64,000 nt of DNA from Spirochaetia bacterium (GTDB lineage: Bacteria; Spirochaetota; Spirochaetia; CADAEX01), in NCBI GenBank assembly GCA_963662795.1, contig OY759746.1, forward strand, positions 256,001 through 320,000, in the 5' to 3' direction. Shown piece by piece: positions 16,012-27,254 of the stretch. Below the pieces are notes generated by a model. That model ran no database searches and was not told where the DNA came from. It worked only from the letters and a program-made list of their open reading frames with translations. Within the stretch, counting starts at the first letter, position 1. Each line of letters begins with the position of its first letter. A program made the position numbers and the translations under genes.

Positions 16012-16123
<112 letters not shown>

Positions 16124-16213
16124 TTAATTTAATTTTTTATTTCACCACAGTTATCAGGTGAAAACCTGATAACTCCAGCAAAATATATATTAAAAGAAGG
16201 GTTAAATAATAAT

Positions 16214-19213
<3,000 letters not shown>

Positions 19214-19420
19214 ATTACTTTTTAACCCTTCTCTATATTCTCCGTACTACTTTTCTTTCATACAGGAATCTTCTTTTTAAAGACCGAAGCCATTGATGGC
19301 GTATTTCTGCTTTAGCCCGTTTACCGGGTCAGCCGTAAAGGCAGTTAAAAGCAGTAATCGGAAATTTTAGATAAATGAAAAAAAGAAATTAAGAATATTT
19401 AAATTTTTTCATTTATTTAC

Positions 19421-19494
19421 TGGGCCTGACAAGACTTGAACTTGTGACCTCGCGCTTATCAGGCGCGCGCTCTAACCACCTGAGCTACAGGCCC
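19421..19494 (-). tRNA. tRNA-Ile(GAT), no encoded CCA
   Basis: GGGCCTGTAGCTCAGGTGGTTAGAGCGCGCGCCTGATAAGCGCGAGGTCACAAGTTCAAGTCTTGTCAGGCCCA folds as a cloverleaf. Confidence 0.97.
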
Positions 19495-19676
19495 AATTAA
19501 AGGGAACAATGCCCTAAAAAGGGTATTATACCCCATAATATTATAAAAAAAGAGGGAGACCTGAAGCTTAAATGGGCCGCCTTACTGCCGGTGTGATTGC
19601 TCACAACCCTGCGGCAAGGACTTTGATTACTCAACTGTAAATCCTTTCGGTTCTACTTAGAGCTTTATACCTTTCT

Positions 19677-21228
<1,552 letters not shown>

Positions 21229-23866: not shown

Positions 23867-25609
23867 CTATATCAGTTCCTTCGCCGCTATTTTGTTCCCG
23901 ATAAATGATACAGCCTCATCAAGGGGCAGCCCGTTCATCTGCTCTCCCGTCCTTAACCTTATCGAAACAGCGTTATTCTCAGCCTCTTTTTCTCCGCAGA
24001 TAATCATGTACGGAACTTTATCATTCTGGGCGTTTCGTATTTTAGCGTTCATCCTCTGGTCACTCAGGTCGGATTCAACCCTTATCATTTTAGCTTTCAG
24101 CGCTTTTTCAACCTTTTTGGCATAATCATCAAAGGCTGGAGCGACAGGTATTGTAACTGCCTGTACAGGGGACAGCCATACTGGAAAAGCGCCTGCATAG
24201 TTCTCTATAAGAACGCCGAAAAACCTTTCAAGAGATCCTAAAAGCGCCCTGTGAACCATATAAGGCCTTTTTTCTTTGCCGTCAGCGTCTACATAAGTCA
24301 TGTTAAACCTGTCCGAAAGGTTGAAATCAAACTGGATTGTCGTCATCTGCCATTCGCGGCCTATCGCGTCCCTTATTTTAAGGTCAATCTTGGGCCCGTA
24401 GAAAGCTCCGCCGCCCTCATCCACTTCATACTCAAGTCCTTCGGCTATTACCGCTTTTTTAAGCGACTCGGTCGCCTTGTCCCATCTTTCCTGGTCCCCG
24501 ACGCTCTTCTCAGGCCTTGTTGATAGATAGGCTTTTATCTCTGTAAACCCGAAAGCTTTCCATATACTGAGTGAAAACCTCAGAACCTCAAGAATCTCAT
24601 CCTCTATTTGCTCAGGCGTGCAGAATATATGGGCATCATCCTGTGTAAAGCCCCGCACCCTCATGAGGCCGTGAAGTACGCCTGATTTTTCGTATCTGTA
24701 GACCGTTCCAAGCTCCGCCCATCTGCATGGCAGTTCCCTGTAGGACCTTTTTTTATTGTTGTAGATCAGGATGTGGAAAGGACAGTTCATCGGCTTGGAA
24801 TAATAGTCCGCGTTATCCATCTGCATCGGCGGATACATCCCGTCGCTGTAAAAATCAAGGTGCCCTGAAGTCTCCCAGAGCCAGGATTTACCGACATGGG
24901 GTGTAAACAGCATCTCATATCCGTTTTTGATATGCTCGCTTCTCCAGAAATCCTCTATTGCCATCCTTATACGGGCTCCCTTCGGGTGCCAGTAAACAAG
25001 TCCGGGACCTGCCTCTTCGTGCAGGGAAAAGAGGTCAAGCTCTTTGCCGAGTTTCCTGTGGTCGCGCTTTTCCATCTCCTCAAGGTGCTGGAGATGAAGG
25101 CGCAGATCCTTCGGGTTTGTCCAGGCGGTCGCGTAGATCCTCTGAAGCATGGGCCTTTTTTCATCACCTCTCCAGTAAGCTCCTGCTACAGACAGGAGCT
25201 TGAACGACTGGGGATTGAGCTTTGATGTGTTTTCCACATGAGGGCCTCGGCAGAGATCTGTAAATATTCCCTGGGTATATGTTGATATCTCCACATCTTC
25301 GGGAAGGTCTTTGATAAGTTCGATTTTATAGTCCTGCCCTTCAAACATCTTAAGTGCTTCTTCCCTGGTAACAACTTTCTTAACAAAATCAGACTTTCCC
25401 GCAATAATTTTCTTCATCCGCTCTTCAATCTCTTCAAGATCTTCCGGTTTGAGCGGCCTGGGCAGGTCAAAATCATAGTAAAAACCGTTTTCTATAGCAG
25501 GGCCGATAGCTATTTTAGCTTCCGGAAACATCTGCAGAACAGCTTCCGCCATTACATGAGACATCGAGTGCCTGATTCTTTCAATCTGTTCAACTTTTTC
25601 TTCAGCCAT
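23867..25609 (-). CDS. thrS: Threonine--tRNA ligase (short form without the N-terminal TGS domain)
   Basis: RHSMSHVMA, DLCRGPH, RDHRKLG, KPMNCP, RGFTQDDAH, AFYGPKID, HRALLGSLERF. Confidence 0.98.
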   Translation of the reverse strand: MAEEKVEQIERIRHSMSHVMAEAVLQMFPEAKIAIGPAIENGFYYDFDLPRPLKPEDLEEIEERMKKIIAGKSDFVKKVVTREEALKMFEGQDYKIELIKDLPEDVEISTYTQGIFTDLCRGPHVENTSKLNPQSFKLLSVAGAYWRGDEKRPMLQRIYATAWTNPKDLRLHLQHLEEMEKRDHRKLGKELDLFSLHEEAGPGLVYWHPKGARIRMAIEDFWRSEHIKNGYEMLFTPHVGKSWLWETSGHLDFYSDGMYPPMQMDNADYYSKPMNCPFHILIYNNKKRSYRELPCRWAELGTVYRYEKSGVLHGLMRVRGFTQDDAHIFCTPEQIEDEILEVLRFSLSIWKAFGFTEIKAYLSTRPEKSVGDQERWDKATESLKKAVIAEGLEYEVDEGGGAFYGPKIDLKIRDAIGREWQMTTIQFDFNLSDRFNMTYVDADGKEKRPYMVHRALLGSLERFFGVLIENYAGAFPVWLSPVQAVTIPVAPAFDDYAKKVEKALKAKMIRVESDLSDQRMNAKIRNAQNDKVPYMIICGEKEAENNAVSIRLRTGEQMNGLPLDEAVSFIGNKIAAKELI

Positions 25610-25673
25610 TTATTTCCTCCATATAGTCTGACCTTTTCATAGTGAGGATGATTGAGTATTTTAAGGCTGTTGT

Positions 25674-25806
25674 CCCCGTCCACGGGGGTATTTACATCCA
25701 TGTAACTCAGCCTTCCGGCGTCCATGCCTCGGCTGAGTATTTACATCCCTGTAACTCAGCCTTCCGGCGTCCATGCCTCGGCTGAGTATTTACATCCCTG
25801 TAAATA
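25674..25806 (-). repeat. Tandem 49-bp hairpin repeat (2.4 copies) with GGA loops on the mRNA strand
   Basis: Unit gtatttacatcc(a/c)tgtaactcagccttccggcgtccatgcctcggctga at 25688, 25737 and partially at 25786; extra hairpin ccccgtccacgggg at 25674. Confidence 0.95.
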
Positions 25807-26160
25807 AAAAAAGCCTTGCATGCCAATCATCCAAACACAACTGCATTAAGCCAAAGCTTAAACAATTGTAAGGACGATAAACATCAAGACTTTGAATGTT
25901 TCCGCGGTTCCACCTTACTTCAGCATCAAATGCTGCGCTCGAGGTGCCTTTTTAACGGGGGCAAAACCGGCCAAATCTACTCAGCTTTCATTTTAAACCA
26001 TCAGGTTAGGTAAAAAGCTTTTCGGATGGCAGCTCGGGAGTGGTTTTCATCTGCACTTGTGCCGGAAATCTTCCAGCCAGCCGTATTTCATTAAGTCTTA
26101 CGGATCGGATTCCCTCTCTCTTGACACAGCGGCGCAGTTACTTTTCTCCGTCAATGCTGT
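25804..26160 (-). ncRNA. T-box riboswitch (Thr, ACC specifier) with intrinsic terminator
   Basis: T-box AAGGTGGAACCGCG (25916-25903); stem I GCATTGACGGAGAAAAGTA...GAAAACCACTCCCGAGC with ACC at 26044-26042; terminator AGTCTTGATG..CGTCC/GGATG..CAAGGCTTTTTTT; upstream of thrS. Confidence 0.92.
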
Positions 26161-26267
26161 TAGGTAAAAAATATTACTGTTGAAATTAAAAGTCAAGAGT
26201 CACCATTAAAAATTGCAATTCTTATTTTTAATTATTTTAACTTCTATATTTAAATACAAATAAATAA

Positions 26268-27254
26268 TTAAAATTCTAAAATTGTTTCATCAATAATTTT
26301 TTCTGTTATATTCACCATTTCCTTTTTGCATACTTTTATAATTACATCTCTGTAATCAACATTCTTTTCCAAAGATTTTTTCTTGATTATTGGTAAAAAA
26401 CTGGAGTGAAGACCTGAATAACCACAAACAATTTCATCAGTTGAAAATCTATTTTTCTCCGAAAGCATTGGGAAAATTACTTCATCGTTTAATGCAGAAA
26501 GGATTTTATAATCAAAATTATTAGTATATCCATATCTTTTTAATAACAGAGTTAATATTTCTGTTGGAGCATTTCCAGAACTTCTACCCAGACCTCCAAC
26601 ACTTGCATCAATTTCCTCAGCCCCGCATTGTACAGCTGTTATAGCATTTATTACTGCTAATTGCATGTTATTATGGGCATGAAAACCTATTGGTATATCT
26701 GTATTCATGTTTGCGTTTATAATATACTCTTTTACCATCTCCGGGATAAAACTTCCAGCAGAATCCATAAGTGTAATTAAATCAATTGGCCACTTAGACA
26801 TGTTTTCAATAATTATACAAAATTCTTTTAAATTAACTGCATATGATTTCATAAGACATACATTCACCCATAATCCTAGTGATTTTGCATATTGCACTGT
26901 TTCAATTATTTGTAAATATTCAGTAATATTTGTTCCAATGCGGATAAATTTCATGCCTTTTGAATATGCCTTTTTAATATCTTCATCTGTACCGTATTTT
27001 TTTAAAAAGAAGAAACCATATTTTGATTTATGTAATGTTTCTTTAGCAATACTCAAATATTGATCATCTGTAAGTGCTGCAGCTTTTTGTAAATTACGAC
27101 TTGCACCCAATCCAAAACCATGCCCCATATCTATCCATTCAATACCAGCTCTTTCTAAATCACTTAGTATTCTTCTTGTCTTAATTTCATCAAATTGAAA
27201 ATCAATAGCATTACTACCATCTCTGAGAGTGCAATCTATTAATTGAAGTCTCAT
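26268..27254 (-). CDS. 4-hydroxy-2-oxoacid aldolase (DRE-TIM, DmpG/HOA family)
   Basis: DCTLRDG, GHGFGLGAS, DSAG, GFHAHNN, GLGRSSGNAPTE, and a DmpG communication-like tail GYSGLHSSFL. Confidence 0.85.
   Translation of the reverse strand: MRLQLIDCTLRDGSNAIDFQFDEIKTRRILSDLERAGIEWIDMGHGFGLGASRNLQKAAALTDDQYLSIAKETLHKSKYGFFFLKKYGTDEDIKKAYSKGMKFIRIGTNITEYLQIIETVQYAKSLGLWVNVCLMKSYAVNLKEFCIIIENMSKWPIDLITLMDSAGSFIPEMVKEYIINANMNTDIPIGFHAHNNMQLAVINAITAVQCGAEEIDASVGGLGRSSGNAPTEILTLLLKRYGYTNNFDYKILSALNDEVIFPMLSEKNRFSTDEIVCGYSGLHSSFLPIIKKKSLEKNVDYRDVIIKVCKKEMVNITEKIIDETILEF

Follow-up and report, generated by a model that had tools for sequence, protein, structure and literature searches.

The window, a 64,000-nt stretch of the Spirochaetia bacterium assembly GCA_963662795.1 (contig OY759746.1, positions 256,001–320,000; genome of 3.93 Mb, labelled G000), carries on its minus strand thrS (23867..25609), a gene for a threonyl-tRNA synthetase of 580 amino acids that was assigned from the list of open reading frames and served to find relatives. 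All features of the thrS locus described below lie on this strand. The gene is preceded by a T-box leader (25867..26163) that contains the conserved T-box sequence AAGGUGGAACCGCGG and, when read by eye, an ACC (Thr) specifier. The leader matches the Rfam model RF00230 in full (model positions 1–219; 78.4 bits, E = 3.6e-17), under the gathering score of 93, and is the sole T-box match in the genome; the match reaches 80.3 bits in the relative G002 and 70.5 bits in G005, showing that the T-box leader is conserved. Judged by its T-box sequence and by the helix followed by seven U residues, it is predicted to work like a T-box despite a Rfam score below the cut-off. The terminator arm (25806..25866), recognized from the sequence and as a long helix in a 301-nt fold, ends in GGCAUGCAAGGC and the U7 run (25812–25806); a simple terminator scan misses it because the stem is interrupted. 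Just 5′ of the leader lies a candidate promoter (26168..26196; TTGACT, 17-nt spacer, TATTTT) with 9 of 12 matches in a consensus scan, which is only a candidate since the region holds two promoter-like sites against a mean of 2.5 in shuffled sequences. The Shine-Dalgarno sequence of thrS, GGAGGA (25615..25620), stands in a context, AUGGAGGAAA, like that of flaB Shine-Dalgarno sites. A UCCUC box able to pair with it (25644..25648) sits in CAUCCUCA (25650–25643), which is conserved between G000 and G002; a helix sequestering the Shine-Dalgarno sequence (UCCUC/GAGGA) was nevertheless rejected, its predicted fold not being significant (z = −1.25). A complete rRNA operon (16S, spacer tRNA at 19421–19494, 23S and 5S; 16012–21226, minus strand) lies ~4.5 kb from thrS.

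An array of small hairpins follows the T-box terminator, ahead of the Shine-Dalgarno sequence; its onset is 2 nt past the U7 run that closes the leader. All strings that the initial annotation had listed for an array 3′ of the terminator are found on the minus strand, and its counts are reproduced by sequence, Tandem Repeats Finder and fold: six GGA-loop hairpins and eight GGA sites in 130 nt, built from a 49-nt unit present 2.4 times in the layout A-B-A-B-A-C (Tandem Repeats Finder: 25688–25803, period 49, 2.4 copies, 98% matches, score 225). The string CCGGAAGG is present twice. Hairpin A1 (UUACAGGGAUGUAA, UUACA[GGGA]UGUAA; 25803–25790), identified by sequence and fold, is followed by module B1 (25755..25786), which folds into a 7-bp outer stem, CUCAGCC/GGCUGAG, around an inner hairpin, GGC[AUGGAC]GCC, and a GGAA bulge. 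Hairpin A2 (25754–25741) and module B2 (25706..25737) repeat A1 and B1 exactly, as shown by sequence and the tandem-repeat match, and the inner hairpins of the two B modules, GGCAUGGACGCC, lie at 25777–25766 and 25728–25717. Next come hairpin A3 (UUACAUGGAUGUAA, UUACA[UGGA]UGUAA; 25705–25692) and hairpin C (CCCCGUGGACGGGG, CCCCG[UGGA]CGGGG; 25687–25674); 3′ of the latter follow ACAACAGCC, a truncated B-module start recognized by comparison with relatives, a ~50-nt spacer and the Shine-Dalgarno sequence.

A single unit folds as (((((....)))))...(((((((..(((......)))....))))))), that is, an A hairpin, a 3-nt linker and a 7-bp outer stem enclosing a small GGA-loop hairpin (−19.9 kcal/mol, z = −4.69, with none of 200 shuffles as good), and the 130-nt array as a whole reaches z = −6.49. 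Neither a promoter-like nor a terminator-like site was found by consensus and terminator scans within 25674–25813 on the minus strand. Two other uses of the sequence were rejected. A small open reading frame at 25725–25552 differs in frame from thrS and is broken by indels in G002, and autoregulation by the synthetase through anticodon-like hairpins finds no counterpart in the loops, whose four nucleotides (GGGA, UGGA) are, by eye, unlike the anticodon loop of tRNA-Thr.

In G000 this type of array occupies the thrS locus only. No further copy of the unit was found in the genome by BLAST (blastn-short), and a genome-wide motif-pair scan found two CA(N)GGAYG hairpins 15–60 nt apart in the thrS leader alone. 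A scan for clusters of GGA-loop hairpins (150-nt windows holding at least four such hairpins, with Watson–Crick stems of at least 4 bp) returned only the thrS leader and two further places, of which one is a CRISPR array. A scan of the genome for terminators followed by hairpins gave no dispersed copies (7 GGA loops versus 17 TCC loops among 238 hairpins) and missed the thrS terminator itself. Of four public runs, all made up of contigs, X1 and X4 break inside the repeat, as expected; in X4 the word depth is 25–55 on the repeat versus about 14, which may faintly suggest further copies.

Two further hairpin-bearing features of G000 are recorded here. The CRISPR array, at ~2.330 Mb of contig C1, has a repeat that holds a GGA-loop hairpin and is the only other strong cluster. 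Five hairpins with stems of 8–13 bp and CA(U/A)GGAUG loops (G000:C1 ~1895481, 1896928, 1900244, 2041230 and 2044033; loci L302 and L303) each occupy a gap after a plus-strand open reading frame, beside a ~100-nt conserved stretch that is repeated between genes; their layout recalls gene-cassette recombination sites, and no Rfam match was found at E ≤ 0.1.

Relatives carry many copies. The thrS array of G002, which belongs to the same genus as G000, reads A-B-A-C-B′-A-C; its modules are shuffled, and compensatory substitution has turned the outer stem from CUCAGCC/GGCUGAG into CACAGCC/GGCUGUG. Arrays of the same architecture and of different sequence lie 3′ of the thrS T-box terminators of three g4 species; that of G005 consists of UUUCAUGGAUGAAA and GCCGAUU[GUCCAGGGAUGGAC]...AAUCGGC, twice over. 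When the G005 array was compared with the g4 genomes by BLAST, diverged copies were recovered elsewhere in G005 and G008 at five loci, all five of which start directly 3′ of an intrinsic terminator; four (L226, L227, L229 and L230) are flanked by convergent genes, and L228 is located upstream of era. A covariance model built from five g4 units (R1) found, at E ≤ 1 and with 150 candidates scored per genome, 26 matches in G005, 16 in G008, 9 in G011, 7 in G002, 12 in G015, 11 in G013 and none in G007; over 97.6 kb, comprising 19 additionally fetched loci and the earlier ones, it aligned 47 matches. When 151 genomes of the class were searched with a broader model (R2), units that keep the two-loop design turned up in two of them (G040 and G159, from two other spirochaete families), a count that is a great underestimate, as 32 candidates were scored per genome and G000 itself was missed. 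The unit of G000 scores 20.5 bits with R1, and both models missed it among their first-look candidates (150 for R1, 32 for R2), so that neither can show absence from a genome. Other modules, such as a CACCWGUACCUG...CAGGUG hairpin, repeatedly accompany A and B, giving the arrays a mosaic character, and the commonest loops across 41 units are CAUGGAUG and CAGGAUG. The thrS array thus very probably belongs to a dispersed family of structured repeats, in which "dispersed" rests on the relatives, the family being confined to the thrS locus in G000.

Beyond these genomes, thrS leaders look different. T-box leaders of thrS outside the family measure 109–168 nt from the T-box sequence to the start codon and contain at most one strict GGA-loop hairpin. 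A metagenome scan with the T-box sequence gave 119 loci, 30 of them with thrS downstream, and all 30 have at most one strict GGA-loop hairpin; no further array was found among these metagenome leaders, none of the 30 having two or more such hairpins. In g3 genomes the spacer from T-box terminator to start codon is expanded to 241–405 nt and holds non-GGA hairpins (L005 in G007, L006 in G015 and L009 in G004). The T-box is gone before thrS in the g3 genomes G004 and G010, where only a terminator-like remnant is left, and three leaders examined from g2 genomes (L014, L020 and L022; G003, G006 and others) have no T-box motif before thrS. Two thrS spacers, in L021 (G032, another family) and L179 (metagenome), are rich in GGAAC and GGAUG words and lack clean hairpins.

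All three stems of the A-B unit covary strongly. Over 46 distinct rows and 585 cells, 93.5% of the cells are standard pairs, compared with 66.8% in shuffles, and both partners have changed in 12 of the 15 pairs, values that none of 500 shuffles reached; controls with slid partners were 23–42% paired. These figures lean towards structure, having been obtained from an alignment fitted to the model, and the compensatory changes are obvious also in a plain MAFFT alignment. Outside the loop-closing pair, the stems hold 12 G·U pairs versus 3 A·C pairs, and in some subfamilies (8 rows) tandem G·A/A·G pairs are kept in the outer stem. Both loops keep CA(N)GGAYG while the stems change by compensation, although the constancy of GGA among model matches is partly circular, the loops being contained in the model. 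The combination of constant loops with covarying stems, and likewise the excess of G·U pairs, suggest that what is recognized is a folded, GGA-bearing single strand; neither observation distinguishes RNA from single-stranded DNA.

Of 31 arrays, 26 start at most 10 nt from a T-run of at least four T residues, as against 509 of 3,000 random positions in the same loci, and a strict GC-rich hairpin with T-run precedes 18 of the 31, as against 23 of 3,000 controls, a rule that misses bulged stems, including three T-box terminators. The orientation of an array is always that of the terminator, so that the copies in relatives are not randomly oriented, the 26 arrays following the T-run in the T-run's own orientation. 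Arrays usually begin 40–200 nt past the end of the upstream gene and often face a convergent gene downstream. Three species differ at one orthologous site: in G011 it is empty, the terminator being followed directly by the convergent gene, while G005 holds a ~75-nt element and G008 a different, longer mosaic. From these empty and differently filled states at the one site compared, it follows that elements are gained, lost or replaced at orthologous sites.

A similar comparison at trpS was set aside, as the G011 trpS behind a three-unit array is an extra paralogue that has no orthologue in G005 or G008. In this locus (L250; G011:C1:1977720-1978917), the array stands between two consecutive terminators and the Shine-Dalgarno sequence of the paralogue, which is 50% identical to the trpS common to G000, G002 and G005; the locus showed no T-box. 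No transposase linked to the repeats was found among the 20 genomes of the family: Y1_Tnp (PF01797) genes occur in 8 of the 20 and do not fit repeat content, being present in no repeat-carrying g3 genome and yet in some repeat-less g2 genomes, and the flanks of the G000 Y1_Tnp gene contain no CA(N)GGAYG motif.

The GGA loops raise the question of CsrA. The Csr reading of the initial annotation presupposed csrA in the genome, and G000 indeed has csrA (PF02599, 90 bits) and fliW (PF02623, 130 bits) side by side at ~2.870 Mb, adjoining a 419-aa gene with a flagellin N domain. The consensus obtained for CsrA by SELEX is RUACARGGAUGU with GGA in a hairpin loop, and passages of the same source describe FliW as a protein regulator of Bacillus subtilis CsrA and leave a CsrB-like sRNA role there open (PMC4347634). 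Hairpins A1 and A2 fit this consensus at 11 of 12 positions (positions 2–12). All three flaB leaders of G000 have a CA(N)GGAYG hairpin, with the loops ACAAGGAUGU, GCAAAGGAUGC and GGCAAGGACGCC, 10–25 nt before a Shine-Dalgarno sequence that contains GGA. Under a strict definition (CA-N(1–2)-GGA-UG, stem of at least 5 bp), 43 hairpins occur in the 3.93 Mb of G000, three of them in the thrS leader and two in flaB leaders. By these sequence resemblances, the array loops are credible as putative CsrA sites.

How csrA and the repeat are distributed among genomes adds to this. The gene was found in all five genomes with a thrS array and in three of five g3 genomes. Genus g2, which looks like a reduced, probably non-motile lineage, has csrA in none of nine genomes, flagellin in neither of two tested and repeat matches at noise level only (best E 0.15), a correlation that is confounded by genome reduction (g2 genomes, 1.2–1.8 Mb). 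In G013 and G015, which have repeats and flagellins, csrA and fliW were not detected in assemblies that are 90% and 58% complete; the one weak flagellin-N match of G015 (60 bits) lies at a contig end and is interpreted as a flgL-like gene, such as the one that adjoins fliW-csrA in G000. Given the incomplete assemblies and the position of this match, the non-detection is no evidence of absence.

Taken together, the thrS array is probably a locally amplified copy of a dispersed, terminator-docking, REP/BIME-like repeat, for which any CsrA binding would be a by-product or a secondary co-option. The unit would have spread by a DNA-level mechanism to a site behind the T-box terminator, chosen as one intrinsic terminator among many, and tandem duplication would then have expanded the thrS copy to A-B-A-B-A-C. 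That the T-box terminator is of the intrinsic type would account for the place of the array; since the family is dispersed behind ordinary terminators, no thrS- or starvation-specific explanation is needed for its position. Every productive, read-through thrS mRNA would carry the array, and its 5′ UTR would therefore expose up to six CsrA-type hairpins together with a Shine-Dalgarno sequence that contains GGA. CsrA may bind these and so modulate thrS translation or mRNA stability, in line with a by-product or secondary co-option. What had first been proposed for the locus is thereby divided: the CsrA-like loops and the presence of csrA stand, a thrS-specific device is not supported, the unit lying behind ordinary terminators in relatives, and the REP-like alternative raised alongside it is backed by dispersed, structured copies in sister genera with gain and loss.

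Binding of CsrA in vivo is somewhat less likely than not. Against it, the A1 and A2 loops are GGGA and the A3 loop UGGA, versus AGGA in the flaB leaders. Some copies have loops without GGA, namely AAUGAC in L226 and CAUGUAUG in L267, and the C hairpin loop of one relative reads UAAA on an RNA-library contig of depth 2.1. Most family copies are without a nearby Shine-Dalgarno sequence. Over 25786–25940, the two RNA-library runs gave a single contig, of depth 2.1, which may be DNA. Against the repeat reading, on the other side, it could be held that two genera retain the array ahead of an essential gene, which may reflect selection for a thrS-related role.

Such a role is the core of the alternative that survives best, which is still unlikely: a dedicated CsrA device on thrS, in which the array binds CsrA upon T-box read-through and either tunes thrS together with the Shine-Dalgarno sequence or titrates CsrA and thereby derepresses flagellin. 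It draws on the fit of the loops to the CsrA consensus (PMC4347634) and to the flaB leader hairpins of G000, on the presence of csrA and fliW, and on the flaB-like context of the thrS Shine-Dalgarno sequence. Further, G002 and all three g4 species retain an array in their thrS leaders, the array is the sole one of its kind in G000, and the A and inner B loops lie ~25 nt apart. This spacing would suit one CsrA dimer per unit. Against such a device, the unit is found in relatives behind many unrelated terminators, often at convergent genes, where there is no Shine-Dalgarno sequence to control. The array is absent from the thrS T-box leaders of other spirochaete families and from two g3 leaders that keep the T-box, although three of five g3 genomes have csrA; moreover, the nearest hairpin lies ~55 nt from the Shine-Dalgarno sequence versus 10–25 nt in flaB, and the array has no promoter-like site. 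It also counts against the device that sponge stoichiometry is hardly to be expected from a leader on a housekeeping mRNA. Titles and abstracts in the literature yielded no report of CsrA–thrS or T-box–CsrA coupling.

A function common to all copies is distinctly unlikely. Here the repeat would be a terminator-associated RNA element, whose hairpins on read-through transcripts bind CsrA or another protein, or block an exonuclease or RNase, and so cause decay or secondary termination or insulate downstream and convergent genes; at thrS, the array would merely tax or stabilize the read-through mRNA. Its position 0–10 nt after the U-run in fixed orientation and its frequent occurrence between convergent genes agree with this, and the covarying stems with constant loops suggest loop recognition in a folded single strand, as do the 12 G·U versus 3 A·C pairs on the GGA strand and the subfamilies with tandem G·A/A·G in the outer stem (8 rows). 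Against it, abutting the T-run this exactly is more typical of target-site insertion than of RNA function, and the orthologous site is empty in G011 and differently filled in G005 and G008. Copy number, too, varies among close relatives (R1: none in G007 versus 26 in G005). Titles and abstracts likewise gave no report of terminator-docking or CsrA-linked extragenic repeats like these. A distributed, read-through-gated form of CsrA docking appears quite improbable; in it, CsrA-binding RNA would report global terminator read-through and, at thrS, the charging of tRNA-Thr, which would couple translation or termination stress to the FliW–CsrA–flagellin circuit.

The starvation-gated sponge that had been proposed as a design specific to thrS finds no support in a family whose members come and go behind ordinary terminators, often at convergent genes; with no promoter-like site, no Rfam Csr/Rsm match and a place in a low-abundance leader, a dedicated sponge is very improbable. 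A last alternative, neutral duplication in tandem of a local spacer that happens to be rich in hairpins and belongs to no family, has in its favour the 98% likeness of the two full units and the lack of BLAST copies in G000, and is scarcely credible in view of homologous units with compensatory changes in G002, the g4 species and other families and of a unit fold with z = −4.69.

On the reading preferred here, that of a locally amplified, REP/BIME-like repeat, the locus represents an uncatalogued repeat class that is very exact in its targeting of terminators and on which a global regulator may dock. Even if the repeats are merely selfish DNA, they form an uncatalogued, strongly covarying family with a very exact bias towards the 3′ edge of intrinsic terminators, and they show that an essential gene under riboswitch control can harbour such a repeat in its leader. 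Its recognition is of use for annotation, for avoiding false calls of sponge RNAs and for the study of terminator targeting. If CsrA truly binds, FliW-type Csr systems would have RNA partners other than flagellin mRNAs, and read-through at terminators would feed into Csr control.

Among known systems, the array resembles the sponge RNAs CsrB, CsrC and RsmX/Y/Z in being an array of GGA-loop hairpins, six of them in 130 nt. It differs in lying inside an mRNA leader instead of forming an independent sRNA gene, in lacking a promoter-like site of its own and in belonging to a host with a FliW-type CsrA system; no Csr sponge sRNA is known from bacteria of this kind. A search of the array against Rfam gave no Csr/Rsm match, nor any other. 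CsrA-repressed flagellin leaders, as described for B. subtilis hag, Borrelia burgdorferi flaB and Treponema denticola flaB1/flaB2, in the last of which the CsrA sites are close to the Shine-Dalgarno sequence (passages of PMC9481697), are alike in having an upstream GGA hairpin and GGA within the Shine-Dalgarno sequence. The flaB leaders of G000 share this layout and the CA(N)GGAYG loop, whereas thrS is an aminoacyl-tRNA synthetase gene with six hairpins instead of one, the nearest ~55 nt from the Shine-Dalgarno sequence.

Nearest to the repeat in concept is the motif TwoAYGGAY (RF01731), which Weinberg et al. 2010 (Table 1; PMC2864571) class as a probable RNA that probably does not act in cis. 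It comprises two hairpins with AYGGAY loops, which the A3 loop (AUGGAU) and the inner B loops (AUGGAC) match and from which the A1 and A2 loops (AGGGAU) are one position off. It is also alike in having no known function and CsrA-site-like loops. The model (gathering score 43 bits) gave no match at E ≤ 1 in 25500–26350 of the window or in G000, G002 and G011, and none at E ≤ 10 in the 11 loci with the best units; its best sub-threshold matches, 24.6 bits in G005 and 22.9 bits in G008, both fall on members of the repeat family. It differs in length, with 168 model positions versus 49–54 nt for the array unit, and in source, having been described from human gut, gamma-proteobacteria and Clostridiales, whereas the array comes from spirochaetes.

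A further parallel is offered by the REP/BIME elements of enterobacteria and pseudomonads, which are short extragenic hairpin repeats that form mosaic or tandem clusters at gene 3′ ends and in convergent gaps, vary in copy number among relatives and are gained and lost at orthologous sites. The family described here has the same extragenic, clustered hairpins, the same siting at 3′ ends and between convergent genes, variable copy number and gain and loss at an orthologous site. It differs in having no linked RAYT-type transposase, in units that are direct instead of alternating inverted repeats, in stems that diverge by compensation around constant loops, and in elements that abut the U-run of the terminator.
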